A stretch of 64,000 nt of DNA, from contig JBDTWD010000001.1 in the NCBI GenBank assembly GCA_040006915.1, positions 98,229 through 162,228 of the forward strand, given 5' to 3'. Below, piece by piece: positions 10,005 to 26,750 of the stretch (position 1 is the stretch's first letter; each line of letters begins with the position of its first letter). The notes below the pieces were generated by a model. It was not told the origin of the DNA and made no database searches. It saw only the letters and a program-made list of their open reading frames with translations. Position numbers and translations under genes: made by a program. This DNA is from Candidatus Woesebacteria bacterium. Lineage in GTDB: Bacteria > Patescibacteriota > Microgenomatia > UBA1400 > UBA12028.

Positions 10005-10005
10005 C

Positions 10006-10329: not shown

Positions 10330-10356
10330 ATGCAGATTATAACAAAGTCCTAACTT

Positions 10357-10439: not shown

Positions 10440-10450
10440 TTTTATTGTTT

Positions 10451-10711
10451 CTAATACTCATCGTGCGTAATAATATCGGTCAAGAGTAATCCTTCTCCTA
10501 TCACCACAAAAGTTATCCGTAGATCACCTTCCAACCAAACAGCATACTCAGTTTTTCTTGAGCCTTTTAATTTATGAGTTTTAAGAGATGGATGGTGAAT
10601 ATTTTGAACTAATAGCTTTAATTGCTTGCTCACTTTTTGTCTCAACTGAGGATTTTTGTCTATTCTTTTTTTGAGTCTTTTCTTGAAATAATCCGAATAA
10701 CTTAGTTTCAT
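10451..10711 (-). CDS. RelE/YafQ-family mRNA interferase toxin
   Basis: 86 aa with HPSLKTHKLKG...YAVWL..DLRITFVV...LLLTDIITHDEY, characteristic of RelE/YafQ. Confidence 0.65.
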   Translation of the reverse strand: MKLSYSDYFKKRLKKRIDKNPQLRQKVSKQLKLLVQNIHHPSLKTHKLKGSRKTEYAVWLEGDLRITFVVIGEGLLLTDIITHDEY

Positions 10712-10986
10712 AAATCATTCAGAAATTCATCAACCTCATCATGTTTGATCTGATGAGTTTTACCTTGAGAGTAATCTTCTAGTGCTTGATCTAACACCTT
10801 TTCAGTTTTTTCACTCATTTTGAAAACTGGCATATCTATATCTTTCACATCAACTAGCACTAGATGTTTAATGTAAGTAGAAATGGACAAACCATATTGA
10901 TCAGCTCTACTCTGGACAAGTTCTTGCAACTTCTCTGGCAAAGTAATTTTTATTTGGGCTGATGGATTAGCAATAATTGTAGACAT
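10708..10986 (-). CDS. ribbon-helix-helix antitoxin (DinJ/RelB-like)
   Basis: 92 aa with an N-terminal RHH (ITLPEKLQELVQSRADQYGLSISTYIKHLV). Its stop overlaps the toxin start (ATGA). Confidence 0.6.
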   Translation of the reverse strand: MSTIIANPSAQIKITLPEKLQELVQSRADQYGLSISTYIKHLVLVDVKDIDMPVFKMSEKTEKVLDQALEDYSQGKTHQIKHDEVDEFLNDL

Positions 10987-11037
10987 AGTACTATTTTAGT
11001 CCCTTTTTAGTCCTTTTTCAAGTACTGAACAGCCATA

Positions 11038-11064
11038 GAGCTTAGTAGAGGACGTCAGAACCTA
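11038..11064 (-). repeat. cassette-array repeat copy R6 (truncated: GAGCTTAGTAGAGGACGTCAGAACCTA)
   Basis: Same truncation type as R2. The last 3 nt are the TAG stop of gene 11062..12030. Confidence 0.7.
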
Positions 11065-12030
11065 TTTCGCTAAAGATTCGGTTGTACTTGGCCTGTAATG
11101 TGGGAATAGCTTTTTCACCTCCCCATCTGAAATCTCTTTTTTTACATGGTAGACCGTAGCCTGATTTTTACCTCTATTCAGGCTAAGCAGACATGACTGG
11201 AGGTCGTTATATTTATCAAGCAATTTTTGATATGCATCTGCCCTCCTATCAAAATCAGGGGTGTGATACTGCATAGCCACGGGTACAAGTTCACGACCAA
11301 CCCAGTAAGCCTGCAATTCCTTTAGCCATAGTGGGAGAGATTCATCTTCATCATCCTGATGGATATGGACTATCTCATGAAGTACCATATTTAACCAGGT
11401 AGCTTTCTCAACAAATTTCTTTGCTTTTTCAATACTTCCCTCTTCTCGCATGAGTGTTTCTCTATTTTGTTCACTTATATTTTCCCAAGTTTCTATGGGT
11501 ATACCTATCACAAAACTTCCTTCTGAGTTGTATGCTCTAAACGTCCCTACCTCATCTTCTGGGATGTATGAAGCGCTTTCCGATTTTAGTCTAGATTTAA
11601 AAAAGTTCTCAAACTTTCTTCGATCAATCTCGGGAATTCCTGAGAGCCACTGTTCTAAATTTGCTTCAGTCAAATCGGTGGCATTTTTACCTTTTTCCTT
11701 TATAAATGTCGAGTAAGATTCCACAATCACCTGTGGAGTTACTTCTTCACTGTCTTTTTCAGCAATAGTGTCTAACTTCCAGTTTGACGTAAATGCTTTC
11801 ATTGTCTCAGGATCTACTAGAACAAAGCGTTTTTTCATCTCATCAAGCGGGATCATTTCACGCTGAGAAAATAGTTTTTGAAATTTAGCAATGAAAAGTG
11901 AATACGCCTCTCCCACAACCTCCTCAAACTCTTTTGCTTTCTCTGGAGATACGGATTGAGCCTCCATTCGCAAGGCATCCAGCTCATCAGCAGATAGGGA
12001 GAAAGAATTTGAACTAGCGTTTTCGGACAT
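11062..12030 (-). CDS. HExxH-motif protein (putative zincin-like metallopeptidase)
   Basis: 322-aa acidic ORF with HEIVHIHQDDED. Confidence 0.45.
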   Translation of the reverse strand: MSENASSNSFSLSADELDALRMEAQSVSPEKAKEFEEVVGEAYSLFIAKFQKLFSQREMIPLDEMKKRFVLVDPETMKAFTSNWKLDTIAEKDSEEVTPQVIVESYSTFIKEKGKNATDLTEANLEQWLSGIPEIDRRKFENFFKSRLKSESASYIPEDEVGTFRAYNSEGSFVIGIPIETWENISEQNRETLMREEGSIEKAKKFVEKATWLNMVLHEIVHIHQDDEDESLPLWLKELQAYWVGRELVPVAMQYHTPDFDRRADAYQKLLDKYNDLQSCLLSLNRGKNQATVYHVKKEISDGEVKKLFPHYRPSTTESLAK

Positions 12031-12078
12031 ACTATTAGTGAGTATACCAAAAATATTAGGGGCGGAAGGAATGAAAGC

Positions 12079-12112
12079 AGGTTCGAGCGTAAAATGCAGG
12101 GCCTAAATGAGA
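12079..12112 (-). repeat. cassette-array repeat copy R7 (degenerate: AGGTTCGAGC + AAATGCAGGGCCTAAATGAG; lacks GGACGTCAGAACCTA)
   Basis: Partial match only. Probably the array terminus. Confidence 0.45.
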
Positions 12113-12708: not shown

Positions 12709-12862
12709 TACGTAAATTGGCTTGAGATGATTTTACCCGTTTCAAGAGCTTGATACAAATTTTCGTTTTCGACTCGTTTGAGCTAGTTTATTACCAGGAG
12801 TATTCATGCAGTCAGAATAGCAAAGGTTCTCGTCTGTTATACCAAACTTTCAGTATTCCATT

Positions 12863-12988
12863 CGGGGTCTTGCCCCTCTTTTACAAGGGTTTCCGGGCTA
12901 TGCCCTCCAATGAACGTCGTTTCACTCCGCCCTTGTAAAATTCACCCCGCTGTTTAAGAGACAGATATGGGAGGCATGCACGCCTCCC
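12863..12988. repeat. nested inverted-repeat / hairpin cluster at the array boundary
   Basis: Outer pair CGGGG 12863-12867 / CCCCG 12945-12949. Inner perfect 11-bp pair TTTTACAAGGG 12879-12889 / CCCTTGTAAAA 12930-12940. Separate hairpin GGGAGGC-ATGCAC-GCCTCCC at 12969-12988. No U-tract follows. Confidence 0.6.
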
Positions 12989-13028
12989 AATCAAAAAGTA
13001 TAAAAATGAGGCGTGAAGAAAGGACGAT

Positions 13029-13325
13029 ATGAAACTGGTATCCAAGGAGCTTGAAGCCCTCTTTGCACAAGTGGGGTCACAGGAGAATGTGGCAGATCCA
13101 ATTGTGATTGCGAAGTTTTTCAATCCCACAGGATCTGGTACGTGGTATGCAACCGAGTATGACGCATCTGAAGGGCGGTTTTTCGGCTATGTGTCTATCT
13201 TTGGCGACTGGAATGACGAATGGGGATATTTTTCTTTAGCAGAGCTACAAAGCTATGTGGGAAGACTGGGCTTGGGGATCGAACGAGATCTGTATTTTAC
13301 GCCCAAGCCATTCTCGAAAATTTAA
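13029..13325 (+). CDS. DUF2958-like protein (family common on conjugative plasmids)
   Basis: 98 aa with WYATEYDASEGRFFGYVSIFGDWNDEWGYFSLAEL...ERDLYFTP, recalled as DUF2958. Confidence 0.5.
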   Translation: MKLVSKELEALFAQVGSQENVADPIVIAKFFNPTGSGTWYATEYDASEGRFFGYVSIFGDWNDEWGYFSLAELQSYVGRLGLGIERDLYFTPKPFSKI

Positions 13326-13652
13326 ATATATATAGGAGACATTTATGATCAATCCCATCGTAACGCGCGAATTTGAAAACCAAATTTTAGAACTCATTGA
13401 CACTCAAGAGGACTATACCCGAGGTGATTTGCAAGGAATGGTGACCGTATTGGTGAACAAAATAATGGAACGAGGGCACGAGATTTTACAAACCCAGGAG
13501 AAATGAGCGATATGCACTGAAAACAAGTGATTTTTTCACTGGTGCGTTGAAGTACGTCGTGGGGTACTAGTTGGTATTGTATAATATCGAGGCGACACTA
13601 CCCAAACGGGAGTGGAACGTAGAAATGAGGCCACAGACACTGGAGGTGCAAA

Positions 13653-14174
13653 ATGGCCGAGTTAGTGAAGAGAGAAGACTTTCAAAAGCTTCTCACGGTT
13701 CGTCAACTCATCGACGAAATGATCGAGCTTGACGAAAAAGTTTTAGCGAATGGCGGCGGATTCCGACAGAGAGAATTTAGCTCTTCTCAGGTGGGATCCA
13801 TAAATGCCGTTCTTCGTGAGACACGTCCGCATTCTTTGTATATCGTTGGATTTGAATTCGACGTGAGCGAAGTCGGGGACGTGGTCGATGTGTCAGTTGC
13901 CAACACAGAAGCAACTGATATCGTACTCAATGCTGCATTGGGAGTGAAGAACTCCTGGGAATCGCCGATGCAGACGCTAACGATTCCCGCTGAGGGTGAG
14001 ATTACTTTTCGTTTTCCCATCCCAGTAAGACTGAAGGAAAGAGAGGTGTGCTTTCACTTTAGTGGAATGATGAGTGCGCTGCGGGACATTCACGTCCAGT
14101 ATTGCGCTGATCAAATGCTACCTCCTCTCCCTCCTGAAAAGAAACCGCGAGGTTTCAAGGAGAACAAAAAGTAA
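13653..14174 (+). CDS. hypothetical protein
   Basis: 173-aa ORF with no motif. Confidence 0.45.
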   Translation: MAELVKREDFQKLLTVRQLIDEMIELDEKVLANGGGFRQREFSSSQVGSINAVLRETRPHSLYIVGFEFDVSEVGDVVDVSVANTEATDIVLNAALGVKNSWESPMQTLTIPAEGEITFRFPIPVRLKEREVCFHFSGMMSALRDIHVQYCADQMLPPLPPEKKPRGFKENKK

Positions 14175-14302
14175 GCAGTAATGAGTCGTGGTTGGGGGAT
14201 CCTCGTCCCCCAACCACAAAACCATTTTTCCAGATGGGTGAATTTGAAACCGTATCCGCGTCATCTATTCACTTCTCTACCTCAAACCGATTTGTTTTGA
14301 TC

Positions 14303-16285
14303 CTACCGCTTTTCAATTTCAGATTTAAACTCCACTGCGAAGACGTGTGCCATTCCGCTCTCAATTCCTTCTTGTGCAAGTATTCGTACTTGTCTATTTA
14401 AGCGAATTGCCCAGACTGTTTTGTTTTCTCTAGGCCCGTCAAATCCGGGATATGTTTTGACCAGTCCCGCACCCTTATTGGCCTGAAGTAATTTTTGTTC
14501 GATGCGTTGAATGTCGGAATCATTAAATTTTTCCCGTAATGTACGAACTGTATCTTCCGGGAATACAAATTCAGGCCACAATCTTTTCTCTCGGATTTCT
14601 TCAGCAAAAGTTTTTGACTTTCCTGATTGCTGTTTTTGTGGTTCCAATGACTGTACCACTGTATAATTTTGTTGTCTTTTATGTTCGCCTCTTTCCGTTT
14701 TGGCTTTCCCTTTTTGTCTCATTGGGGCAACGTCATATGAATTAACTCGAGAAATCATGTTTTCGGCAGGTGTTGGGGTATATAGTCTCTCATTCTTTAT
14801 CCGAACAGTGTTATCAAGTAATTGATGGATGAGTGAAAGCGTCTGAGCCTGGAGTGATTCATCAACAGCTTCTTCATCTAACAAACGTAAATAAATTGCT
14901 GGATGGTCAGCGTGAAGATCTATTGCTAAGGTTGTCAAAGAAAACGGCATACTATTCTCCATTGACAAGTGTTCGAGCTCCTCTTCGTTGTGAATAAAAA
15001 ACAATTGTACAAAAAGAATGTCATCATCTTTTTTTACTCGAGCCGTTACGAAGTCTGTTGGGACTGATAAGTGTACTTGATCAAGTTTTGCGAGTGAAAC
15101 CCAACTATCAGAAATCGAAAGTTCAGCAGCGAATGCTCGTATTTCCTGCCACTGTTGTGTCGACCACTCTTGTTTCTCGCCAAAAAGAGCAGCCAGTTGA
15201 TCAGATGAGCAAATAACTACTTTGGAAACTGATTGAACAGTGCCTTTCATATTTTCTGCAAGGTCAAAATACCACGAATCGTTCGTATCTTCTGCAATAG
15301 TATATAAGTTTTTTATAAGGACGAGCTCATCGACGACATTCATTATCCCCCGCTTTACGGCTCCTAAACCGAAATACTGTCGTTTCTCTTCTCGACTACC
15401 TACAATCGCTGGTGACTCGATAAAATCTGTTACAAACTGACGGCTGGCTAGATGTTTTGGATCCTCATCATCTGTAAGTGCGTTATATGTCTGCAAAATG
15501 AAGTCTGAAAAGAGATGGTACATCCTTTTTGTGAGAGCCTTTTCTTTATTTTCTTTAAAATATTTTTTGTAGATTTGCTCAAACTCATAATCGTCCATCG
15601 CAACAAAACCTTTTACAAATATTCCCAAGTAAAAGCTCTCACTCTGCTGAAAAACTTCATGTAAAAGCGTGCTCATTACTTGGTACCGAGCATCGCTAGA
15701 ATTGTCTCCCTCTGTTTCAAGATCAAGAGCCAGTTTTTTGAGAACTGCGAACACTGGCATATATGCCTCTATATCCTCATACGCATCGGACTGCTTGAAA
15801 AAAGATGGAACCGGAATGCGTGCCCATTCTGTAATTTCACGTACGACATTTTGATCAAAATCGACAACGTCTGATCTATGGAGTTGTTTGATAATATCGT
15901 GTCCACTATCGGCTACACGAATATGGGCGTTAAATAACCGAACTATCCATTCTTGAATAGCTGTCTTTCCAATGGGATTTTCTCCATCTTCTAGTCCTGG
16001 CATATTACCTATTAATTCGTATTTTTCAATATTCCATCGGGCGAGTGTCCCCACGAGACCTCCGATATTTTTCACACCGAGTGAACGTGATTGAAGGATA
16101 AACGATCTGGCTCCTTGCTCTAAGTATCGTCTCTCGGGGAGTTCTTCTTGTGCAGTTTCAAATGAAGCAATGTCTGGAAGTTTATATGACCCGTCTGGGT
16201 TTTTTTCAATCTCTATTGGAATAGGAGAAGCAGTGGGCTCACCCACATACAGTGCACGGCTTAATTTAAATTCTCTTTCTTTCAT
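14303..16285 (-). CDS. large hypothetical protein (660 aa); the C-terminal ~60 aa faintly resemble a RelE/ParE fold
   Basis: Long uninterrupted ORF. C-terminal TVWAIRLNRQVRILAQEGIESGMAHVFAVEF is weak. Confidence 0.5.
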   Translation of the reverse strand: MKEREFKLSRALYVGEPTASPIPIEIEKNPDGSYKLPDIASFETAQEELPERRYLEQGARSFILQSRSLGVKNIGGLVGTLARWNIEKYELIGNMPGLEDGENPIGKTAIQEWIVRLFNAHIRVADSGHDIIKQLHRSDVVDFDQNVVREITEWARIPVPSFFKQSDAYEDIEAYMPVFAVLKKLALDLETEGDNSSDARYQVMSTLLHEVFQQSESFYLGIFVKGFVAMDDYEFEQIYKKYFKENKEKALTKRMYHLFSDFILQTYNALTDDEDPKHLASRQFVTDFIESPAIVGSREEKRQYFGLGAVKRGIMNVVDELVLIKNLYTIAEDTNDSWYFDLAENMKGTVQSVSKVVICSSDQLAALFGEKQEWSTQQWQEIRAFAAELSISDSWVSLAKLDQVHLSVPTDFVTARVKKDDDILFVQLFFIHNEEELEHLSMENSMPFSLTTLAIDLHADHPAIYLRLLDEEAVDESLQAQTLSLIHQLLDNTVRIKNERLYTPTPAENMISRVNSYDVAPMRQKGKAKTERGEHKRQQNYTVVQSLEPQKQQSGKSKTFAEEIREKRLWPEFVFPEDTVRTLREKFNDSDIQRIEQKLLQANKGAGLVKTYPGFDGPRENKTVWAIRLNRQVRILAQEGIESGMAHVFAVEFKSEIEKR

Positions 16286-16383
16286 TGAGTGATAGTACTA
16301 TATTTTTTATATTTGGCAAATATCTTGCCCTAGTCACGAACAGGTGTTTTGAATTCTTCTGAAAATGATTTATAATCCCGGGA

Positions 16384-17142
16384 ATGAGAAAAGAACTGTG
16401 TGCATATTGCGTCACTTGGCAAAAATGTTTTTATGAGGATATCTCTCTCAACGGTTTGCAGCAAGCTCTCGAACATGGAAATACTACAAACTGTCCACAG
16501 TTCCCTTCTTTATTGGCAGAAGCCCTAGATCCAGGCACCATTTCTTCGCCTGAAGAAAGTATTGTATCCGTCGTTGAACAGTCTCCTCTTGAAACGGTTG
16601 AAACCATGATTCCACAAGCTGAGGATATAGAAAAAATCATTGACAACACTCCTCCAATAGAGGGAGAAATTCCCAAGCCTCGCATGATAGAAACAATTAT
16701 TTTTAAACGTCTACCGACTAAACGAGAGACAGTTCAGGTAAAAACAAATGGGAAACAAAGGGACATCACAAACGGCAAGGCTGAAAAAGGTGCTGGTACT
16801 CCCAAACGATCCACAGTAAGCATTTCGTTACGTGAATATATTGATGTGCAGGATTATCTTGCTCAAACCGATGTATCTGAACGTCTAAGGAGTGCATTTG
16901 GATACATTACAGAGGCAATTGACAAGTTAGGGAAATATACACAGGATCTCGACTACAAAGAGAAAGAGAGGCTAGGGAAAATTATTACAAGAATTCTTGA
17001 AACGAACGATGTGTTTGAAGATTATGAGGAAGCGCTACATTTCTTGAAAGCTCTAAAAGGAATCGTTACCGTTTGGACTGTGAATACAAAGGGCAAGAAC
17101 AGAAATGAAATTCAAAAATTTGACCTGAATGGATCTACTTAG
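16384..17142 (+). CDS. hypothetical protein with an N-terminal Cys pair
   Basis: 252-aa ORF containing CAYCVTWQKC. Confidence 0.45.
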   Translation: MRKELCAYCVTWQKCFYEDISLNGLQQALEHGNTTNCPQFPSLLAEALDPGTISSPEESIVSVVEQSPLETVETMIPQAEDIEKIIDNTPPIEGEIPKPRMIETIIFKRLPTKRETVQVKTNGKQRDITNGKAEKGAGTPKRSTVSISLREYIDVQDYLAQTDVSERLRSAFGYITEAIDKLGKYTQDLDYKEKERLGKIITRILETNDVFEDYEEALHFLKALKGIVTVWTVNTKGKNRNEIQKFDLNGST

Positions 17143-17231
17143 TAATTTTTTAACTGAAAATATACAGAATGAAACGCCCACTGCATGTATTGATTTGGTA
17201 ATCAACCACACAGTGGGCTTCTTTAGCACCT

Positions 17232-17630
17232 TTACAGAAAAGCATGACGTTTTAGCCAGTATCGAGAATAAAAGATTCCACAGATCCAACCCAAGACTCC
17301 ACCGGGAATATCCAGAAGATCTGGTGTTCCCATATTGAACAGGGGTAAGGCAGGGATTTCCTCATCGAGCACTGCGTAGATGCTTACAACAATTGCGACT
17401 GCAATTATCGCTAATACCATTTTCCTGTTCCGTATTCGCAAGAGAGTGAAGAATACTAACGGGACGAGTATGATGAAAAACGCATTATCCGCGTCACCGA
17501 TATGAGTGAAAATTCCCTGGTTTAAGATTGTTTGTAACCAGACGATATGATCATGATTTGCTATACCACGTAGTGGCTCCAGCAGTAAAACGGGGAAAAT
17601 GATCCACCAACTCCAATGCATTGTTGTCAT
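17232..17630 (-). CDS. small membrane protein (VanZ-like, tentative)
   Basis: 132 aa with 3-4 TM segments. LDEEIP...GGVLGWICG loosely resembles VanZ. Confidence 0.35.
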   Translation of the reverse strand: MTTMHWSWWIIFPVLLLEPLRGIANHDHIVWLQTILNQGIFTHIGDADNAFFIILVPLVFFTLLRIRNRKMVLAIIAVAIVVSIYAVLDEEIPALPLFNMGTPDLLDIPGGVLGWICGIFYSRYWLKRHAFL

Positions 17631-17804
17631 CCTTTTCTGTTTAGATTTTAAAGGGCCGAAAATGCTATAAAATGTCGTATGGCCAAGCTTGAAAGTCGCG
17701 GCAAATTAAAGCACTGGGATTATATCATCAAGATAAAATCGAGGATTTGCAGCATTTATTATTCAAGTCTGGATTGAAGTCTTTAAAACGAGGAATTTCT
17801 ACTC

Positions 17805-17855
17805 TTATATACCCTCTCCCTGAATGTCTGCCCGAATCCCGAGGAAAAAGTTCAT
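17805..17855 (-). pseudogene. remnant of the 3' end of a replication-relaxation-family gene
   Basis: Minus-strand reading MNFFLGIRADIQGEGI* parallels the C-terminus MNFFLGIHKDIQVRGIQADTWESVSD* of gene 18895..19671. The nucleotide similarity extends over about 60 nt. Confidence 0.5.
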
Positions 17856-17858
17856 TGC

Positions 17859-17887
17859 TTGACAAGCATAAAGTGTCACGTTACACT
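17859..17887 (+). promoter_or_regulatory. sigma70-like promoter of the fic gene (TTGACA-17-TACACT)
   Basis: TTGACA 17859-17864, 17-nt spacer, TACACT 17882-17887. ATG at 17897. Confidence 0.45.
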
Positions 17888-17896
17888 TAACGGTAT

Positions 17897-18883
17897 ATGA
17901 CCAATATTCTGACTGTACTCGAGGAGAAGAAACAACGACTCGATGGCTTCAAACCATTCTCTGTTGATCTGGTGACAAACCTCCGGGAGTGGTTCAAGAT
18001 CGAGCTGACCTACACTTCCAATGCAATTGAGGGCAATACCCTCTCTAGAGCTGAAACTGCCCTGGTGGTGGAAAAGGGAGTGACTGTCGATGGAAAGACG
18101 CTTCAGGAGCATTTAGAGGCCGTAAATCACGCCCAAGCCTTTGATTGGGTCATACAACGAATAGATACTACCAAGCAGGACATTACAGAAAGCACTATCC
18201 TGGATTTACATCAACTCATTTTACAAAAGATCGTAGATAATCAAGCCGGGAGATACCGTACTGTTCCAGTCCGTATTGCTGGCTCAACTGTTATCATGCC
18301 GAACGCCATGAAGGTTCCCGAGCTTATGAGTGAGTATGTCTCATGGCTTCAAAAAAACACGGACCACCTAGTAGCTGTCGCAGTAGATGCCCACTTTAAA
18401 TTAGTGAGTATTCATCCCTTTGTCGATGGAAATGGCAGAACGGCTCGATTGCTTATGAATTTACTTTTAATGCAGGCTGGCTATCCTCCAGCCATTATCC
18501 GCAAGGAAGAACGTACACAATACATCGCTAGTATTGAAAAAGCTCAGCTTGGAGGCTCACTCGCTGATTACTACGCTTTGATGTATGAGGCAGTGAATCG
18601 CTCACTCGATATTTACCTTGAAGCTGTAGAAGGGAAAGAGCAAGCCAAGATTCTAGAAAAGAAACCCGTCCTTAAAATCGGCGAGCTGGCTGAACTAACG
18701 AATGAAACAGTCCCTACGATTCGCCACTGGACCAAGGAAGGGCTACTTAACGTGGTTGAATATACCGAGAGTGGTTATCAGCTTTATAGTCAAGATACTG
18801 TGGCTATCGCACGAAAAATTCGCAAGCTCCAAGACACAAAGCGGTTAACACTAGCTGAAATTAAAAAAGAGTTGGCACATTAG
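17897..18883 (+). CDS. Fic family protein (class II, N-terminal inhibitory motif) fused to a C-terminal MerR-type HTH
   Basis: Fic motif HPFVDGNGRTAR. Inhibitory-helix motif SNAIEGN ([S/T]xxxE[G/N]) near residue 40. C-terminal KIGELAELTNETVPTIRHWTKEGLL is MerR-like. Confidence 0.8.
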   Translation: MTNILTVLEEKKQRLDGFKPFSVDLVTNLREWFKIELTYTSNAIEGNTLSRAETALVVEKGVTVDGKTLQEHLEAVNHAQAFDWVIQRIDTTKQDITESTILDLHQLILQKIVDNQAGRYRTVPVRIAGSTVIMPNAMKVPELMSEYVSWLQKNTDHLVAVAVDAHFKLVSIHPFVDGNGRTARLLMNLLLMQAGYPPAIIRKEERTQYIASIEKAQLGGSLADYYALMYEAVNRSLDIYLEAVEGKEQAKILEKKPVLKIGELAELTNETVPTIRHWTKEGLLNVVEYTESGYQLYSQDTVAIARKIRKLQDTKRLTLAEIKKELAH

Positions 18884-18894
18884 TTTATCGACGT

Positions 18895-19671
18895 TTAATC
18901 TGAGACACTTTCCCAAGTGTCTGCCTGAATACCTCTTACTTGAATGTCTTTGTGAATTCCAAGGAAGAAGTTCATTTCAACTTCTTCCCTTCTGAGTTCT
19001 TTGGAAATGAATGAGACGAGATGGTTTTTTAGTTTCGTATTTGGACAAATAACGAGAAACGTGGGGAATGTGAATGCATAATGATCCTGCCAGTGTCGTT
19101 CTTGGTAATACTGAATGTATGTATCAATTTTTCTTTTCGAAGCAAAGAATGGCGTTTTTTTATCAATTACCACGATAAAATATCGCCTTTTGATCTCCCC
19201 ATTTTCCGAAATAGCGACATATCCATCTGGGAGTGGCTCAGGAGCATAGGAAAATTGTTCCAGATCAGTTGTGGTATAGAACTCGAGCGTTGTTCCCACT
19301 TCTTTGGTAGCCTTCAAAAATTGAAAATACAGATCAGCGATAAACAGCCAATGGTATTGAAAGTCTAAAGATCTCTTCTTGTCTGTGTAGGCGCGAGTCA
19401 GGAGTTTCGGAATGCAGTGCGCATTTGAGCGCAAGTACTGCCTGCTCTTAAGCCCTAGTGAATAGACTGCTGGTCTATGTGTGTTCTCTGTTGTTCTTTT
19501 ATATGTCCGATTTACCATTTTCTTCTCCGTAAGATCTTTGAGCCAGGTAGATATACGAGAGGAATTGGAATGATTGAGCAGATGTTGAATATGAAGAGTG
19601 GAAAGAAAACGATAGCGGTAAAGGTAAAGAAGGATGTCTGTTTGAGTCGGTGTAATAGAGTCAGTATGCAT
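18895..19671 (-). CDS. replication-relaxation (Replic_Relax) family winged-helix protein
   Basis: The ORF is open to 19758, but that extension would encode across a strong tetraloop hairpin, so the start is placed at the internal Met (MHTDSITPTQTDILLYLYRYRFLSTLHIQHL). Confidence 0.5.
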   Translation of the reverse strand: MHTDSITPTQTDILLYLYRYRFLSTLHIQHLLNHSNSSRISTWLKDLTEKKMVNRTYKRTTENTHRPAVYSLGLKSRQYLRSNAHCIPKLLTRAYTDKKRSLDFQYHWLFIADLYFQFLKATKEVGTTLEFYTTTDLEQFSYAPEPLPDGYVAISENGEIKRRYFIVVIDKKTPFFASKRKIDTYIQYYQERHWQDHYAFTFPTFLVICPNTKLKNHLVSFISKELRREEVEMNFFLGIHKDIQVRGIQADTWESVSD

Positions 19672-19682
19672 AGAGTGTTGTG

Positions 19683-19700
19683 CCACCCCTTCGGGGTGGA
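19683..19700. other. stable hairpin CCACCCC-TTCG-GGGGTGG
   Basis: 7-bp GC-rich stem with a UUCG-type tetraloop. No U-tract on either strand. Confidence 0.6.
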
Positions 19701-19772
19701 GGGATTGTACTCTCTCTTTAGAGAGGAAGAGAACAAAAATTGTGTATATCTTCCTCAACTAGTTTGTAGTTT

Positions 19773-19798
19773 ATATGTATAAATCGATTTATACATAT
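19773..19798. repeat. perfect 26-nt palindrome ATATGTATAAATCGATTTATACATAT (candidate operator/oriT inverted repeat)
   Basis: Self-complementary. Lies between the T4CP stop (19800) and the replication-relaxation gene. Confidence 0.7.
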
Positions 19799-19799
19799 T

Positions 19800-22442
19800 T
19801 TAACTAAAATTAATGGATTTCATTTGTGGTGTTCGTTGTCTCTGTATTTTTTTCTGGCTCAAAAAAGTATGATCTTCTTTTGGTTCCTGATACTCGGTAG
19901 AGTACAACCTACGTGACCTCTTAATCACCCGGTTGGTAATCACTTGATTTGCCGTTTCAACAATTGGAATCGTTTCACCGGAAAACGGTTCTTGGGACTG
20001 AAGCCCACTAATTTTTGCATAGAAATGGTATGCAGGTAGATTGCCAATTTCTCCCTCTCGTACGTATGGTTGGAATTGTGGCAAGATAAGTCGTTCATCT
20101 TCCGGGTTGGCTGTGCGAAAACAAATAATCGTTCCGGTATTTGCCAGAGTGACATTGACTAGAGACTTGTCTTCCAGTTGAGACGTAGTTTGGTGAGCAA
20201 GGATTGCATTCAAACGGTACTTTCTGGCTTCTGATAAGATCTGCGCAAAGGAAGGAGTGGCAAAGTTTTGAAATTCATCGACATACAGATAAAAATCTTT
20301 TCTCTCTTCACTCTTCATTCGAGCTCTTTTCAACGCCGCTAACTGAATTTTTGTCATGAGTAGCGATCCAAATACCTGCGAGTTGTCCTCACCGATTTTC
20401 CCTTTGGACACGTTACATAACAGTATTTTTCCAGAATTTATGATGTCATCAAAATCTATGGTCGATTTTTCTTGTTCCAAGATTCGTTTCGCTATCGGAG
20501 AGAACAAGAAGCGTCCGATTTTATTGGTAATCGGAGAGATCATGGAGACTTTTTGATAGTCACCGGCGGTACTAAACTCATACTTCCAGAAATCGTGAAG
20601 GTTCTCGTCCTGAATTTTGGGAATGACTTGGTTGCGATAGTCATCGTTAATGAGGAGCTTGTAGATTGTAAAAAGCGTTGGATTGGGAGTCAGAAAAGCC
20701 GTATGAATCGTATTCCGCAAAATATACTCCATACGAGGACCGGAATATCGTGCGTCATACAATTTATGAAACAGAGAAATGATGCTTTCGGTAATAACTT
20801 CTTTTTCTCGCAAGAGTAGATCTCCCGTCAACTCAGGGGGAATTTCCAAAAGATTTAGTCCGACTGGAAAATGAATGTCATCCGGATTGACGTATACCAC
20901 ATCATTGATTCTATTTTCCGGTATGAGTGGCAGGATATTTTCGATCAAATCTCCATGCGGATCTATCACGCAAACACCTTTTCCGTGTTCAATGTCCTGT
21001 TTGATCATTGAGAGTAACATCGTCGACTTCCCAGTCCCAGTGGCTCCCAAAATATACATGTGTCGTCGTCGTTCTTCGATGTTTAAACCAATTGGCGTTG
21101 TCGTTCCTCCATAGGTGTTTCTCGCAAACACAACATCAAAGTCTGCTGCACTCTTTAACGAGACGGGGGCTGGTAGTTCCCGACTATGCACTTTCTGGAT
21201 ATCTTCTGTTTGTGTCGTGGTTGTGTACGGAAAATGATAGAGATCAGAGACTTCAGGAACGGATAAGATCGAATGTCCGAAAAACCCAATCAGCCGATGC
21301 TGAAAGATAAACAGTTGGAGTTTGTACAGAAATTGTAGTCGTATCAGTGGCGTGAATCGTAAGGATTGATATGCGGTTGCGAATGAAGACAGTGCGGACG
21401 CAAATCCCCTGATTTTGGTATGAGACTCCCTTGCCTTCCCAATCGCTAGAACGCGTATGGATGTTGAAAATAGCTGTTGATCAAGTTTGGCTTTAACCAG
21501 TGTTTCAAGTTCGGTTTGGTAGGGATTGAGCGTTTTTTTCTTGATCTTCTCAAAGGGAAAAGAGAGAAATGGACCTTCATTCCCTCCCGTGGCAATGAAG
21601 ACAATGACACCAATTGGCAGCATCACTAGATGAATACAGAAAAGTACGCTCGTGTGTATTACAGTAGAGATGAATCCTTTCCGAGTTCCACTCGTTAACG
21701 CTTGGACCAAATCAGTATTTGTATACAGGATATGAGAGAGTCGTTTAATATCCGTCACCCATTTTTTGTTGACTGGGGAGGCAACGATCTGAAAGGCAAC
21801 AAGTTCATCAGGTGCAAGTTTTGTCATGCTACCGGTAAGATATGCAATGGGATCATGCTCCTCTAATACATTCTGTGACTGTAACGGAAAGGCAAAGTGA
21901 GTGCGTGTGCTCCATTCGGCAATCACTACTCTTTCCCGGCTCACTGAGGGTGAGAGATAGTCATCTGCTTCTTTGATCCGCATTCCCGGCAAGTACGACA
22001 GCAACCCTTTCTTGATGATGTCTACATCCTCAGTACGAACACGTAATATGTAGCGAATACCCTCATGTTTGGTTGACACTATTTCAAATGCGTACGATTT
22101 CTGATATCCAACAAGTCTGTGTATCCACGATTCATAGTTTGTAAGTCCATGCAGTACCAGGAAAAGCTGCTGAGTTGCATAGGAACTCTGTAGAGTTTCA
22201 GTCGGAGGATGCAATTCTAGAAATGTATAGTTTTGACGAAGTTGGATCTGCACTCGTAGGAACGCCGCGAGCACTTTAAGAACGAGAACAATACAAATGA
22301 GAAGACACACTAGCATCACGACTGAGAGAAGAATCGGAAGATAAGAATCAAAGGATAGAGATAGCGTAGGAACGGAAACAGAAGCAGACAATGATCCAAG
22401 AATGATTTGAACGACGAGATTATTTTTGAAGAGATCAATCAC
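19800..22442 (-). CDS. TraG/TraD/VirD4-like type IV coupling protein (membrane-anchored P-loop ATPase)
   Basis: 880 aa with two N-terminal TM helices. Walker A ILGATGTGKST, VIDPHGD, Walker B YLYVDEFQNF and ARKYRLNAILAHQ resemble the T4CP/TraG-D C-terminal domain. Confidence 0.6.
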   Translation of the reverse strand: MIDLFKNNLVVQIILGSLSASVSVPTLSLSFDSYLPILLSVVMLVCLLICIVLVLKVLAAFLRVQIQLRQNYTFLELHPPTETLQSSYATQQLFLVLHGLTNYESWIHRLVGYQKSYAFEIVSTKHEGIRYILRVRTEDVDIIKKGLLSYLPGMRIKEADDYLSPSVSRERVVIAEWSTRTHFAFPLQSQNVLEEHDPIAYLTGSMTKLAPDELVAFQIVASPVNKKWVTDIKRLSHILYTNTDLVQALTSGTRKGFISTVIHTSVLFCIHLVMLPIGVIVFIATGGNEGPFLSFPFEKIKKKTLNPYQTELETLVKAKLDQQLFSTSIRVLAIGKARESHTKIRGFASALSSFATAYQSLRFTPLIRLQFLYKLQLFIFQHRLIGFFGHSILSVPEVSDLYHFPYTTTTQTEDIQKVHSRELPAPVSLKSAADFDVVFARNTYGGTTTPIGLNIEERRRHMYILGATGTGKSTMLLSMIKQDIEHGKGVCVIDPHGDLIENILPLIPENRINDVVYVNPDDIHFPVGLNLLEIPPELTGDLLLREKEVITESIISLFHKLYDARYSGPRMEYILRNTIHTAFLTPNPTLFTIYKLLINDDYRNQVIPKIQDENLHDFWKYEFSTAGDYQKVSMISPITNKIGRFLFSPIAKRILEQEKSTIDFDDIINSGKILLCNVSKGKIGEDNSQVFGSLLMTKIQLAALKRARMKSEERKDFYLYVDEFQNFATPSFAQILSEARKYRLNAILAHQTTSQLEDKSLVNVTLANTGTIICFRTANPEDERLILPQFQPYVREGEIGNLPAYHFYAKISGLQSQEPFSGETIPIVETANQVITNRVIKRSRRLYSTEYQEPKEDHTFLSQKKIQRQRTPQMKSINFS

Positions 22443-22536
22443 AGGTTAAGTACTCCTGTCCATACGCGAACTATTACCGAGGAGTCTATAGCAGCCCCTC
22501 TCAGAAGTAAACCACTCGATATGAGATGAGATATTT

Positions 22537-23976
22537 CTACGAACCTTTTACTGTATCCACCAGCTTCTCCCAAATCCGCACCATAGCGAGGGTATCGAGT
22601 TCACAGTATTTGAGTAAATTCTTCTTGATCTTTTCCTTCTCTTCTTGGGTTCCTTCTTCATATACCATCTGCCACCAGGCATTCATAGCAGTAGCACCTT
22701 CACCAATCTCTAAATTCTTGTAACTTAATTCTGGAACCAGAACTGGCAATACGTTTTTGATAGACCAGCTGCCTTTAAATTCCGGCATCACATACATGTC
22801 ATTTTCTTTAAACGGATCACCTAAGTCATACATGCGATCATTCACATCCATGAGGAAGTCTCGGTATCCAGGATAGAGCTCGGCCATCTGGACATTACAC
22901 CCCATTTCGTATGATTTATTCCAGGCAATCACAGTTCCCACTTTTGGCATATCTTGTTCCAACCGGTAGATGATTTCTTTGCTTGGATCAACTTTGGTTG
23001 TCACAATATGTTCAAAGTGCGTAATAGGTTCTCCGATATGTTCTAACACGTGAAGTGAATACTGAAAAGTCATTACCCCGTATGGATGGTAACCATCATA
23101 TATAGGAATGCCAGGATTAAAGGTTTCGTAATCCAAGAATGCGAGCGGAGTGATGAGTTGTTCTAGTTCGTGGCGAATTAAATCACGATCTATAAACGGC
23201 TTCCCTAGTTTTGTAACTTCAATTTGCTTGCGTTGTTTGGGTTTTAATGGAAAGTCGTCCGGGATATCAAGCATCGAAAGAATTCCCTGTTCTCGTAACT
23301 CCTTTTTATGCTTGGCCCATAGTCCTGAAACTTCAAAGATAGAATGCTCGGGGAGATTCGGGTTACACAGATCTGGACATGAACACGTCTTTGGATTTAA
23401 ACATCCTTCTATATGTTCTGAAGATTCTGCAAGGCATAGTTTCCATGCTTCTTCGCGCTTGGCACTGACTTCTTCGAACAAGTGTTTAATGGTGAGATCA
23501 ACCAAGGTGATTGTGAAAAACGCTTTGGGATCGATTTCTCCTGCTCGCACATATTCAGAATTGACTGTAACAATATAGATGTGACGAAGTTTTACGTGCT
23601 CTTGGAGAATCAGCGCTTGAAATGCTGCATCATACAAATGTCTGGTATCTCGGGCGTCCGTGCTACTTTTGATCTCGTAGAGATCGTAGACATCCTCAGT
23701 CTTGTCATGGACGAGTGCGTCAGTGCGCGCTTCAAAGTGAACATCGGTAAAGGTTTGTTGCCACAAGACCGTATTGATATCAGATTCAAGTGTCTGAGAA
23801 AGGAATTTTTTAGCCAGATCTTCAATCTGATATCCCTGTTTGGTTAAATGTGCATCAAAGGGAGAAAGTGGTGCCGGCGGAAGATTGGCATGTTTGCGCG
23901 CCCACAAATGCATGGGTGCTTCAAGATACAACAGAAAGTCGGATTTACTCAGTGTCATGAAGCTGTAGTATAGCAA
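22537..23976 (-). CDS. RecB/Cas4-like PD-(D/E)xK nuclease-domain protein with a Cys cluster (DUF2779-like)
   Basis: 479 aa. D...YDLYEIKSS (D/ExK) followed by a QALIL (QxxxY-like) region. Cys cluster EGCLNPKTCSCPDLC. C-terminal half unassigned. Confidence 0.5.
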   Translation of the reverse strand: MLYYSFMTLSKSDFLLYLEAPMHLWARKHANLPPAPLSPFDAHLTKQGYQIEDLAKKFLSQTLESDINTVLWQQTFTDVHFEARTDALVHDKTEDVYDLYEIKSSTDARDTRHLYDAAFQALILQEHVKLRHIYIVTVNSEYVRAGEIDPKAFFTITLVDLTIKHLFEEVSAKREEAWKLCLAESSEHIEGCLNPKTCSCPDLCNPNLPEHSIFEVSGLWAKHKKELREQGILSMLDIPDDFPLKPKQRKQIEVTKLGKPFIDRDLIRHELEQLITPLAFLDYETFNPGIPIYDGYHPYGVMTFQYSLHVLEHIGEPITHFEHIVTTKVDPSKEIIYRLEQDMPKVGTVIAWNKSYEMGCNVQMAELYPGYRDFLMDVNDRMYDLGDPFKENDMYVMPEFKGSWSIKNVLPVLVPELSYKNLEIGEGATAMNAWWQMVYEEGTQEEKEKIKKNLLKYCELDTLAMVRIWEKLVDTVKGS

Positions 23977-23991
23977 CTCAAATACGAAAGT

Positions 23992-24186
23992 TTACCGTCG
24001 CCTTCTACTCACAAATTTTTTGCGTCGCCTTCTCTCATATTCAGCAGTTTTCTCCTGTTTTTCTTTTTCCAATCTGTCTTCTTCATGAATAGCCTCGATC
24101 ATGTCCTCGTAGCTTCCTTTTATAACCTCAATCGGTACACTTTGATCAGGTTCTTCTCTCCGATCATCGTATTCTCTCCGTCCCAT
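23992..24186 (-). CDS. small highly charged protein (possible)
   Basis: 64-aa ORF, Arg/Glu-rich, between the nuclease and helicase genes on the same strand. Confidence 0.25.
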   Translation of the reverse strand: MGRREYDDRREEPDQSVPIEVIKGSYEDMIEAIHEEDRLEKEKQEKTAEYERRRRKKFVSRRRR

Positions 24187-24250
24187 AAATTCTCCTTTGA
24201 TGAAATCCTTTTCAGGATGGTAAACCCATACTCATTTTCTGGCAAGAAGA

Positions 24251-25909
24251 TTATTCGACTTTCATAATCTTTTCCGCATTAAAGGTAAGAAGTTTTCCAG
24301 ATTCGGAAACTGCCGACAGGCCCAAAAAGTGTTTTCCTTGGTGAGACATTTCTTGCAATGATTTTGGAGTCACTGTTTGCGTGGATTCTTCTCCCAGTGA
24401 CTTCAGGTACGTCAATTGAATTGTTGTTCCCATTTCGATAGCATCAGCCACGCGTTGATATTTTTCTTCTCGTGATTGTTCTCCATCGGAAACTCGTATT
24501 GTATAGCTGGTTAAAAACTGTGTAATACGCCAATTCAGTTTGATGTCTTTGGCCGTAACGGGATGAGTAAGAGTAATACCTTCAAAAGTTCGACAGCGTG
24601 AGAGCGCGACATATACTTGCCCATGAGCAAAAGCTCCGTGTTCTAGGTTGATAACAACTTTATCAAAGGTTTTCCCCTGGGATTTATGGATTGTGACCGC
24701 CCACGCAAGCATCAATGGTAATTGGGTAAACTCTCCGAGTTTTTCTTTTTCTAACTCTTTAGTTTTGGAAAGAACCGTGTGGGTTAATTCCCAGGTGTGT
24801 GGTTCAATCTCTTCTCGTTTTCCCTCATCGATGGCCACAATGACGCTGTCAGCCTTTAATTTTTTAATCACTCCTAATGTTCCGTTTACGTATCGTCCTT
24901 CTGGATCATTGGCAACAAACATGACCCGGGCACCAACTTTAAAGACCAGTTGATCAATTGTGGGTAAATGCCCATCAGGAAAAGCGCCGACGTGTTTACT
25001 ATCGTAAAACTGTTTCTTCCCAGGAAGTTTCGCAAGCTGGTCTTGATTGATTTGTGCAGCTGTATCACGTCTGCCGGTTAGCGTGATTGGAGGATGAGTA
25101 TCGTTCTCTTCATTTTTGTTCACTCTGCTATTCAGTTTCTCTATATGTTCGTTTGCGATCGCATTCATGCGGACACTGCCTAACAGAGAGATAAAATCTG
25201 GATCATTTTGTCTATAGATAGTTTCAAGTTCAACCATGGTAAAACTTTCGGTTTCGCTTTCCATGATTCCCCGCATCACTTGGCTATCAAAAAACCATTC
25301 ACTTTGATACAAGGTCCGGAAGGTTTCATACTCTCTGCTGGTTACGACTGGAGGAAGTTGATACAAATCTCCAAAGAATACCATTCGTATTCCCCCAAAA
25401 GGACGGTCGTCATCTCGAACAATACGTAAATATGTATCGACGCAATCTAACAGATCACTTCTGACCATGGAAATCTCATCAATGATGATCATGTCCAATT
25501 TTTTGTAGAGAGTTCGATCTTCAGTGAAAAAGGCATCGGAGCGCGCTTCTTTTTTGGTTATATTCGGAGCGAAGCGAAAAAAAGAATGGATTGTTTCTCC
25601 ACCCACGTTAATAGCAGCTACTCCGGTGGGAGCGAGAACTACGAGTGGAATTTTGGTATGAAGTCTGAAGTGCTGTAAGAGGGTTGATTTTCCAGTTCCG
25701 GCCTTACCAGTGATGAAGATATGTCCTCTCCCATTTTCAAGGTTTTCTAGTATTTGAGAGAACTGAGGAGAAATAACAATATCAGGCATGGCCTTAGATA
25801 ATACCCTACAGATGGCCTTTGTGTCTCTTTCGTTTCTATCCTCAATCCAGAATGACTTTCTAGACTCAGGATAGTCCCTCTTCCGTTTAGAAAAGAGGGA
25901 CACGAACAA
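24251..25909 (-). CDS. PIF1/RecD-family SF1 DNA helicase
   Basis: 552 aa. Motif I ITGKAGTGKST, motif II IIIDEISMV, FFGDLYQLPPV, TIHKSQGKTFDKVVI. Carries a C-terminal extension of about 100 aa. Confidence 0.75.
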   Translation of the reverse strand: MFVSLFSKRKRDYPESRKSFWIEDRNERDTKAICRVLSKAMPDIVISPQFSQILENLENGRGHIFITGKAGTGKSTLLQHFRLHTKIPLVVLAPTGVAAINVGGETIHSFFRFAPNITKKEARSDAFFTEDRTLYKKLDMIIIDEISMVRSDLLDCVDTYLRIVRDDDRPFGGIRMVFFGDLYQLPPVVTSREYETFRTLYQSEWFFDSQVMRGIMESETESFTMVELETIYRQNDPDFISLLGSVRMNAIANEHIEKLNSRVNKNEENDTHPPITLTGRRDTAAQINQDQLAKLPGKKQFYDSKHVGAFPDGHLPTIDQLVFKVGARVMFVANDPEGRYVNGTLGVIKKLKADSVIVAIDEGKREEIEPHTWELTHTVLSKTKELEKEKLGEFTQLPLMLAWAVTIHKSQGKTFDKVVINLEHGAFAHGQVYVALSRCRTFEGITLTHPVTAKDIKLNWRITQFLTSYTIRVSDGEQSREEKYQRVADAIEMGTTIQLTYLKSLGEESTQTVTPKSLQEMSHQGKHFLGLSAVSESGKLLTFNAEKIMKVE

Positions 25910-25923
25910 TAGTGTGAAAAGTG

Positions 25924-26487
25924 TTATAGGTGGAATTTAGGGCAAAGGATTTCGAGTGCGGCAGTCGGCACCCACAGATTGAAACTGGTTGATTCTACAG
26001 ATTCCTGCTGCGTATTATGTAACGAATAGCGGATGACTTGACCTGCTATCCATTTCCCATCATAGTTTCCTCCTACTAAGACGATTGTTTCGCCCGGATA
26101 AAGAAGATCCGCCGGCGGCTGGTAAAAGGGGTTCGTTTCGTCTTTTGTGTCTATGTTCCCAGACCATTTTGTTGACATAGTCGTTGTGATCACGACTGCA
26201 CTGCAATCGTCGCCGGTTAAGCGGCTTCGATAAAGAGGAGGTGCGTCACTAAGCTTCACGCAGTCCTCCACTGTTTCACCTACAGTGGGATATACACACT
26301 GTCCATTAATCCAGTAGAGCTTGCCTGTAAGGTCATATACAGGGGTTGCTGTTTGAAGAGCTTTCTCCTTTATTATGTGGTTAAGACCTGTAATTACTGA
26401 AGTCCCTCCGATGATCGCCAAGACCAAAACTAAAGCGATGATGGTGATCAAATTCTTGTCGAACAAATGCTGTCTCTCGTTACGCAC
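25924..26487 (-). CDS. membrane-anchored hypothetical protein
   Basis: 187 aa with an N-terminal TM helix. Confidence 0.45.
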   Translation of the reverse strand: MRNERQHLFDKNLITIIALVLVLAIIGGTSVITGLNHIIKEKALQTATPVYDLTGKLYWINGQCVYPTVGETVEDCVKLSDAPPLYRSRLTGDDCSAVVITTTMSTKWSGNIDTKDETNPFYQPPADLLYPGETIVLVGGNYDGKWIAGQVIRYSLHNTQQESVESTSFNLWVPTAALEILCPKFHL

Positions 26488-26750
26488 GTTTCTACTCCTT
26501 ATTTGATAAAAGTTTGTCTTCCCCTGCTATACAGGCTATGACAAGGGACGATTGTCCACTCTCAAAGCCTGTATAGGGTTTTCACACTAGAGTTGTAAAA
26601 GAGCGATGCACATATGACTACAAAACGTGATGTTCTGTGCCCCATATGCACGAATGAGTATTGTACCAAAAGAAGGCAGAGACATCAATATTATAGGTTC
26701 TTACAATGAGAGTTATCGAGGCGGTGGTCTGTATTAGCGCGTGGTCGCAT

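Follow-up and report, generated by a model that had tools for sequence, protein, structure and literature searches.

CloDF13, through MobB and MobC, provides its own relaxase and coupling protein and borrows the pore of a helper. MobC and the TraX protein of pAD1 are MOBC relaxases; such enzymes belong to the PD-(D/E)XK class, carry a winged helix at the N terminus and have a D-E-E metal site (PMC12857230, PMC6736028, PMC3424549), and the Pfam family PF13814 (Replic_Relax) corresponds to the MOBC relaxase superfamily (PMC5357655, PMC12857230). Streptococcal integrative mobilizable elements (IMEs) with a Rel_PF13814/MobC relaxase were described by Coluzzi et al. 2017 (PMC5357655); they encode their own relaxase, many their own coupling protein, and combine these with a borrowed mating pore and a serine or tyrosine recombinase. 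Here, we analyzed a 64-kb stretch of DNA, hereafter the window, from the chromosome of a Candidatus Woesebacteria (Patescibacteria), in which the gene for a type IV coupling protein (T4CP) is followed by a Replic_Relax gene. The reading we favor, with reasonable though incomplete confidence, is that this region is a chromosomally integrated, integrase-less and probably immobile member of a family of Patescibacteria IMEs. The family is like the streptococcal IMEs in the features just listed. It differs from them and from CloDF13 in its Patescibacteria host and in a backbone DUF2958 or ArdC-like gene headed by a 130-nt structured element, and the window copy differs further in having no recombinase.

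In Patescibacteria, a type IV secretion system (T4SS) is essential in the only genetically tractable species (PMC10633639, PMC12102498), and Wang et al. 2023 reported that coupling and relaxase proteins are lacking at the essential Southlakia T4SS (PMC10633639). In a 2025 survey, 2,918 Patescibacteria genomes yielded 5,713 VirD4-like T4CPs, most of them encoded far away from virB4, and only 109 relaxases (58 of them MOBC), of which 39 were near t4cp (Quinonero-Coronel et al., PMC12102498). Because relaxases and nearby coupling proteins seemed absent, the Patescibacteria T4SS has been argued to be non-conjugative (PMC10633639, PMC12102498), and the survey allowed for exaptation as well as for "very different relaxases yet to be found" (PMC12102498). 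The T4CP of the window appears to belong to this surveyed population of "orphan" T4CPs. By contrast with that population, however, nearly every T4CP of the family compared here has a PF13814 neighbor (69/70) and usually a serine recombinase, and these neighbors point to mobile elements and not to an exapted part of the T4SS.

The host DNA is a Candidatus Woesebacteria chromosome, and the T4CP sequence matches, at 100% identity, that of an NCBI protein encoded on a 251-kb contig of a metagenome-assembled genome (MAG) of this group. We counted Pfam hits above the curated cut-offs and also ran NCBIfam, PADLOC and PHROG. A preliminary description of this DNA had listed six co-localized protein families (DUF2958, Fic, replication-relaxation protein, TraG/VirD4-like coupling ATPase, RecB-like nuclease and PIF1/RecD helicase), and Pfam found every one of them at the coordinates it gave. 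Its other observations were borne out as well: a cassette array adjoins the module, built on a ~47-nt repeat with the core GGAGGACGTCAGAACCTA; a gene remnant is present and proved to be a relaxase 3' end; the palindromic and hairpin DNA is real and non-random when compared with shuffles; and no integrase is recognizable, either by Pfam or by hidden Markov models (HMMs) built from relatives. The description erred in stating that no relaxase could be recognized, as PF13814 is the MOBC relaxase superfamily, and it overlooked the Patescibacteria host, the missing serine recombinase and a structured element upstream of DUF2958. The features shared with related elements are as follows.

12861-12992, plus strand: structured non-coding element of ~130 nt (covariance model R1, 92.4 bits, E 1e-24)
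13029-13325, plus strand: DUF2958 protein, 98 aa, the first gene after the structured element (Pfam PF11171, E 1e-16)
18895-19671 (open reading frame, ORF, 18895-19758), minus strand: Replic_Relax protein (PF13814), 258 aa, a MOBC-type relaxase candidate
19672-19799, minus strand: T4CP/relaxase spacer of 128 nt with three palindromes (sequence and shuffle tests)
19683-19699, in the spacer: palindrome P3, CCACCCCGAAGGGGTGG
19712-19725, in the spacer: palindrome P2, CTCTCTAAAGAGAG
19773-19798, in the spacer: palindrome P1, with 13-bp arms
19800-22442, minus strand: VirD4/TrwB-like T4CP, 880 aa (Pfam TrwB_AAD_bind, DUF87/HerA and TraG-D_C)

The coupling protein scored above the Pfam cut-offs for TrwB_AAD_bind (44.4 bits, cut-off 20.5), DUF87 (44.6, cut-off 23.2) and TraG-D_C (26.6, cut-off 22), and a DUF8128 domain is recorded in its precomputed annotation. 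It has a Walker A motif, GATGTGKS, at 466 and a Walker B motif, YLYVDE, at 718, and Kyte-Doolittle hydropathy suggests an N-terminal membrane anchor, with hydrophobic segments at 9-69 and 256-288. The top match among PDB sequences was TrwB (E 1.5e-6), and scores against the NCBIfam TraD/VirD4 equivalog models fell far below their cut-offs. More than 1,199 homologues were found; the best 120 are 55-72% identical and, where named, come almost all from Patescibacteria. In a 10-sequence alignment the window T4CP retains all invariant columns.

The relaxase candidate matched PF13814 with 49.7 bits (E 8e-13, cut-off 25.3) over profile positions 3-187 of 191, and all 23 Patescibacteria relatives tested (23/23) also passed the cut-off. 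Its true start is probably the ATG at 19671, because homologues align from about residue 30 of the ORF. An exhaustive Replic_Relax search returned 802 clusters at 50% identity (E<=0.001), and a word-indexed protein search with the single relaxase sequence returned 2 proteins only. No relaxase-like plasmid proteins were found by tblastn against PLSDB, and no sequence relative was found in the PDB. An AlphaFold2 model (pLDDT 91.5) has a winged helix at residues 8-72 and an alpha-beta-beta-beta-alpha-beta core at 102-209; in a Foldseek search of the PDB the best match was FokI and the remainder were MarR/ArsR-type winged-helix (wHTH) proteins. The predicted architecture is an N-terminal winged helix followed by a PD-(D/E)XK-like core. 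Comparisons by hhalign with single TraX-like sequences were weak.

Motif alignment to TraX-like proteins places the PD motif of the family at P148-D149 and its first acidic strand residue at 167. The window protein keeps D149 and also D170. At position 167, however, it has valine (codon GTG, one transversion from GAG), where 109 of 137 diverse family representatives have E or D and where the first E of the TraX FEIEL motif aligns. By this motif alignment, the acidic metal-binding triad (the D-E-E of TraX and MobC) is incomplete, and V167 therefore suggests that the window relaxase may be catalytically impaired. D149 is itself absent from ~23% of the 137 representatives; given such losses of D149 or of the acid at 167, either many genomic copies are dead or the residues are non-essential. 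We also considered counting departures from the residues conserved in the family as evidence of decay but dropped this measure, since most are common to the window's own subclade.

We compared the locus with 80 related loci, chosen as the best tblastn matches to one T4CP family in the genome_contigs collection, scanned with one genome per species; the frequencies given here therefore describe only that family. ORF calling and clustering across these loci were kept simple. The genomes are labeled Woese-, Levy-, Shapiro-, Collier-, Pace-, Nomura-, Gottesman- and Woykebacteria, WWE3 and Saccharibacteria. Other MAGs with the gene pair (L003, L004, L006, L007, L009, L010, L012, L013, L019, L027 and others) are labeled Gammaproteobacteria, Pseudomonadales, Methylococcaceae, Anaerolineae or Woesearchaeota; such off-phylum labels probably reflect mislabeled or contaminated bins, not hosts in other phyla. 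The T4CP gene is followed by a same-strand Replic_Relax gene in 69 of the 70 loci with enough downstream DNA, usually across a spacer of ~100-190 nt. Of the 47 loci whose sequence extends 4 kb or more upstream of the T4CP gene, 42 have a gene, divergent from it, for a large serine recombinase of ~560 aa (Pfam Resolvase and Recombinase). DUF2958 is encoded in ~40 loci, on the opposite strand and 0.9-5.5 kb past the T4CP end; the window protein is 58-74% identical to most of these homologues and 26-48% identical to about a dozen. ArdC-like genes are present in 15 loci and VirB2-type pilins in 13, and a PrgI gene together with one for a VirB4-like ATPase lies within 10 kb in 7 of the 80.

Several observations bear on mobility. 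Flanking genes differ in every locus, and four MAGs each carry two loci with the T4CP. Two elements from different MAGs (L029:7453-20765 and L030:6802-21135) match at 98.7% identity over 7.2 kb and at 93% over the next 6.2 kb. Their common DNA starts within the recombinase gene, ~100 nt in from its 3' end, and the two differ in what precedes it. The point at which this homology starts suggests an attachment site within the end of the recombinase gene. Cargo is variable and includes P-type ATPases (recognized by sequence inspection) and VirB2-like pilins, PrgI, VirB4-like ATPases and ArdC-like genes (by Pfam and HMMs); restriction-type and DUF262-type genes are also apparent on inspection. Collectively, the T4CP/Replic_Relax family behaves as integrating mobile elements. 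Its backbone, as judged from gene order, spans ~6-7 kb and comprises the serine recombinase, the T4CP, Replic_Relax, 1-3 small genes on the opposite strand (DUF2958 or ArdC-like) and the structured element, with cargo beyond. DUF2958 is one of its backbone genes, and the serine recombinase its normal integrase. We classify the family as IMEs that are widespread in Patescibacteria, with a few conjugative members. In the literature we searched, no paper describes a unit of recombinase, T4CP, Replic_Relax and structured element. Apparent heavy-metal P-type ATPases lie beyond the structured element in L003, L004, L016 and L040, and with such cargo the family may spread metal resistance in Patescibacteria.

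The structured element is made up of hairpin A (12864-12876), stem B (12879-12889 paired with 12930-12940) and hairpin C (12969-12988), and contains the invariant single-stranded motif TTCACCCCGCT at 12941-12951. RNAalifold gave 21 pairs, 13 of them with compensatory changes. In the alignment 95.2% of cells were paired, a value reached by 0 of 500 shuffles, and slid controls gave 42-61%. Covariance searches with R1 found exactly one copy in the window and one each in 54 of the 80 related loci, always on the strand opposite the T4CP and, in relatives, 38-2329 nt (median 914) beyond the relaxase. Only the T4CP, Replic_Relax and the serine recombinase are conserved in more loci. The first gene headed by the element varies and can be DUF2958, an ArdC-like gene (7/54 loci) or a member of three unnamed families; in the window the element forms the left edge of homology to related elements. 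It had no Rfam match at E<=1, and counts of G-U and A-C pairs were about equal and so gave no signal as to its strand. We regard it as a candidate origin of transfer (oriT), leading-region single-strand promoter or 5' leader RNA. Leading regions of conjugative plasmids have Frpo-type single-strand promoters ahead of anti-restriction genes, and the element resembles these in being hairpin-rich, non-coding and directly upstream of the first small genes by the transfer genes. This likeness is a lead only; the element showed no sequence or Rfam relationship to Frpo-type promoters.

The spacer between the T4CP and relaxase genes is a further candidate cis-acting region. Across 51 distinct related spacers, with shuffles as the control, a P1-type palindrome directly after the T4CP stop codon was present in 59% versus 6% in shuffles, in 15 different sequences, and a P2-type CCTT(A/T)nAAGG palindrome ~75 nt into the spacer in 78% versus 11%. 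P3 has three compensatory pair changes relative to L002 and L003. Because a promoter-like motif and a ribosome-binding site surround P2, the spacer (19672-19799) may serve as promoter and operator, as oriT, or in both capacities.

The TraW-TraX pair of pAD1/pTEF1 in Enterococcus faecalis has the same order of T4CP, short spacer and PF13814 protein of ~260 aa. The oriT2 of pAD1 lies between its T4CP and TraX genes, and the equivalent spacer here has the conserved palindromes. On pTEF1, a pAD1-type plasmid classed as MOBC by MOB-suite, a "TraM recognition" T4CP gene precedes a gene of the replication-relaxation family, and two further plasmids, one from Shouchella and one from Embleya, have T4CP-then-Replic_Relax pairs inside their transfer regions. 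The likeness to pAD1/pTEF1 extends to the relaxase, which combines a winged helix with a restriction-endonuclease-like domain (PMC12857230). Unlike pAD1/pTEF1, the Patescibacteria elements are integrated and paired with a serine recombinase, not plasmid-borne; similarity to a TraX homologue is detectable in the winged-helix region only; the acid motif is E-x-x-(E/D) as against E-x-E in TraX; and the T4CP is larger, with the extra DUF8128, and most members have no adjacent T4SS.

The window copy departs from its relatives through the following features, given with those at its borders.

3080-12105, both orientations: cassette array with the ~47-nt repeat
13345-17630, mixed strands: accessory insert of orphan genes
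13345-13506, plus strand: orphan, 53 aa
13653-14174, plus strand: orphan, 173 aa
14303-16285, minus strand: orphan, 660 aa
16384-17142, plus strand: orphan, 252 aa
17232-17630, minus strand: hydrophobic orphan, 132 aa
17808-17855, minus strand: remnant of a Replic_Relax 3' end, 16 codons and a stop, encoding MNFFLGIRADIQGEGI*
17897-18883, plus strand: Fic AMP-transferase fused to a MerR-type helix-turn-helix (HTH) (Pfam Fic E 1e-22, MerR_1 E 4e-16)
22537-26487, minus strand: closely packed set of four accessory genes, located upstream of the T4CP
22537-23976, minus strand: DUF2779 Cas4/RecB-like nuclease (Pfam E 2e-33, weak Cas4 hits)
23992-24186, minus strand: orphan, 64 aa
24251-25909, minus strand: PIF1/RecD-type SF1B helicase (Pfam E 3e-28)
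25924-26487, minus strand: orphan, 187 aa
26527-26576, no strand assigned: hairpin I5, an inverted repeat with 23-nt arms, 83% complementary, and a 4-nt loop, between the 187-aa gene and Wzy_C

The orphans of 53, 173, 660, 252, 132, 64 and 187 aa matched no Pfam, NCBIfam, PADLOC or PHROG model, and those of the insert (13345-17630) have no homologue in any of the 80 loci. The four genes at 22537-26487 fill the position that the serine recombinase occupies in relatives. Only 4 of the 80 other loci encode DUF2779, at other places in the cargo and with 36-42% identity, and none of the 80 encodes the PIF1 helicase. Fic is present in 4-5 of them, beside Replic_Relax in L014, L032 and L037. DUF2779, PIF1 and Fic are variable accessory genes outside the conserved module. 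The Fic protein has, as read from its translation, an intact HPFVDGNGRTAR motif and the SNAIEG inhibitory motif, and PADLOC assigned it to PDC-S04 (E 5e-37) and SoFic (E 2e-32). Its gene is bracketed by two copies of the relaxase 3' end: the remnant MNFFLGIRADIQGEGI* is 75% identical to residues 233-248 of the intact protein, and a 48-nt direct repeat (17809-17856 and 18929-18976) is 75% identical. The copy beyond the Fic gene is a rearrangement scar. Fic recurs near Replic_Relax in L014, L032, L037, L055 and the window, in differing positions and orientations, as if it were a favored passenger or an addiction module.

The junctions from PIF1 through DUF2779 and the T4CP to Replic_Relax were reproduced at 99-100% identity by an independent Logan assembly (L001). 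To the right of the module lie envelope and housekeeping genes (Wzy_C, PAP2, NUDIX, G6PD, histidine genes, tRNA synthetases, PBP1, IF3/L20 and tRNA-Val), and hairpin I5 could act as a terminator or mark where the module ends on the right. On this flank, a partial histidine cluster (HisG, class I/II aminotransferase, HisD and IGPD) stands beside HisRS at 43095-48876, and G6PD stands with a 6-phosphogluconate-dehydrogenase-like gene at 30904-33696; such biosynthetic content is unusual in a reduced Patescibacteria genome. At 41021-42823 lies a gene whose 600-aa product contains a dockerin type I domain together with calcium motifs resembling EF-hands; the gene is preceded by a 694-aa orphan (38419-40503), and its product may be a surface or host-attachment protein. 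To the left of the module, copies of the GGAGGACGTCAGAACCTA repeat at 7366, 8034, 9057, 9975, 10410 and 11035, with a partial copy at 12079, and inverted copies at 3080, 4367, 5247 and 5922 separate single genes (TspO, cupin, methyltransferase, DUF5674, YafQ-like toxin and DinB_2). No integron integrase was found in the 64-kb window, and the array looks like an attC-type array without an integrase. We rejected the possibility that it is typical cargo of the family: the repeat was absent from 86 of 86 loci, and no other locus had a similar array.

Of the components of an IME, the window has a relaxase candidate, a T4CP and candidate cis-elements. No recombinase or transposase was found by Pfam on 60 ORFs across the window, by the relatives' HMMs or by tblastn, which leaves the copy with neither integrase nor excisionase; no ArdC-like gene was found in the window by tblastn or the relatives' HMMs; and mating-pore (MPF) genes of its own, as an integrative and conjugative element would have, were not found there either. 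The gap between structured element and relaxase is 5.9 kb in the window versus at most 2.3 kb in relatives, because the orphan genes and the Fic gene lie between. With its recombinase missing, V167 in its relaxase, foreign genes within its backbone and a relaxase fragment nearby, the window copy is in all likelihood stranded; at best, outside help could still mobilize it.

A number of observations weigh against this interpretation. Every backbone ORF in the window is intact. The G+C content of the module (0.40-0.44) is chromosome-like, with no contrast to the flanks, and is lowered in the cassette array only (0.35-0.39). We found no ends, attachment sites or convincing flanking direct repeats for the window copy, and no empty site: a metagenome scan with the flanking Wzy_C gave relatives of 34-39% identity without shared neighbors. 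Integration as a discrete insertion is accordingly presumed for this copy. T4SS genes (VirB4, PrgI, pilin and M23) were not found in the 64-kb window by tblastn or the relatives' HMMs, and profile comparison with a TraX homologue aligned the winged-helix part only. The catalytic role of residue 167 is assigned by motif alignment alone, and ~20% of the 137 representatives also have no acid there, so the loss of E167 is suggestive, not decisive; the residue may be dispensable, or acid-less copies may commonly be dead. Finally, the T4CP is strongly conserved and sits in an apparent six-gene operon, which fits a retained cellular function too.

Such a function is the substance of one alternative, in which the cell has taken over the T4CP and Replic_Relax, for instance as suppliers of protein or DNA substrates for the essential T4SS, and the pair forms a working operon with PIF1 and DUF2779. 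The best 120 T4CP homologues span several Patescibacteria lineages at the identities given above, each residue invariant in the alignment is kept, six tightly spaced genes run on one strand from 26487 to 18895, the integrase is absent and G+C matches the flanks, all of which suit domestication, and published work treats exaptation of Patescibacteria T4CPs as a possibility (PMC12102498). We nonetheless consider it unlikely. The context differs from locus to locus, some MAGs have two copies and near-identical copies have unlike upstream flanks; the serine recombinase is an almost constant partner in relatives; the association with PIF1 and DUF2779 is unique to the window; and a t4cp homologue is non-essential in Southlakia epibionticum (PMC12102498). 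A lower probability still attaches to an integrated plasmid-like replicon, a rolling-circle unit with the PIF1/RecD helicase and Cas4-like nuclease in which Replic_Relax would be mainly a nicking replication initiator. The invariant partner in 69/70 loci is a T4CP and not a helicase, the helicase is confined to the window among the loci compared, and the plasmid homologues sit in transfer regions. Nevertheless, PHROG matched the relaxase to "replication initiation by nicking" and "replication initiation protein" (E 1e-5 and 3e-6), Pfam names the family for replication-relaxation, both roles are listed in PMC3424549, and helicase and nuclease share one gene string. Initiator and transfer roles are in any case compatible and not mutually exclusive.

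Least probable, and in our view very improbable, is a defence island in which Fic, a HerA/mad8-like ATPase, a Cas4-like nuclease and a RecD/PIF1-like helicase form one or more anti-phage systems. PADLOC did return PDC-S04 and SoFic for Fic, mad8 (E 9e-22) for the ATPase, PDC-S68/RecD for the helicase and weak Cas4 matches, and related elements have an apparent DUF262-type protein and a restriction-type helicase (sequence inspection). The mad8 match, however, is to a generic P-loop domain that also matches TrwB/T4CP models; no complete known system is present, only a mad8-like P-loop and a weak mad1-like HTH, with no methyltransferase and no other mad genes; and the four genes do not co-occur in other loci. 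Fic and other cargo genes may, individually, still act in defence or addiction. Known defence systems (MADS, HerA-type and Cas4) were rejected as generic domain matches only, and a conserved core-gene block was rejected because only T4CP/Replic_Relax(/DUF2958) recurs and the flanks differ. A phage origin was likewise rejected: PHROG matches were to the relaxase only, and IMG/VR scans with PIF1 and DUF2779 found nothing.

Returning to the stranded IME that we favor, the preliminary description had proposed an integrated or degraded conjugative element. The part of this proposal that holds is conjugation-type mobile DNA in the chromosome, with a degraded look; DUF2779, PIF1 and Fic, which it had included, are not in the conserved module. 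Conservation of the whole block in identical context across distant genomes, which would have told against a mobile element, was not what we found: T4CP-Replic_Relax(-DUF2958) alone recurs, and the flanks differ everywhere. The G+C profile, which the description had suggested as a check, did not set the module apart from the flanking chromosome.

In intact relatives, the recombinase would excise the element, and the winged-helix/PD-(D/E)XK relaxase would bind and nick an oriT, for which the structured element and the palindromic spacer between the T4CP and relaxase genes are the two candidates. Next, the T4CP would pass the DNA to a T4SS, encoded adjacent to it in ~7 of 80 loci and otherwise supplied in trans, in the way that CloDF13 uses a helper pore; the obvious candidate in trans would be the chromosomal MPF-FATA-like T4SS of most Patescibacteria. 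We tentatively extend this to a broader proposal, which we regard as a serious possibility but would not yet back: units of serine recombinase, T4CP, Replic_Relax and structured element could be the "missing" DNA-transfer modules of Patescibacteria, riding the essential chromosomal T4SS, with the 130-nt element as oriT or as a single-strand promoter for DUF2958 and ArdC-like genes in the recipient, and with the window copy as a fossil.

Taken alone, the window holds an ordinary-looking remnant of a decayed mobile element beside a cassette array, a degraded IME of a kind already known; it is the family context that is of wider interest. Patescibacteria make up a large share of bacterial diversity, and the family-level finding bears on the puzzle of their orphan T4CPs and missing relaxases. 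With T4CPs almost always beside a MOBC-type candidate, usually with a serine integrase and near a structured DNA or RNA element, the questions of whether these bacteria conjugate and which pore they would use become testable on defined elements and sites, and if the broader proposal is true, the Patescibacteria T4SS does conduct conjugation.

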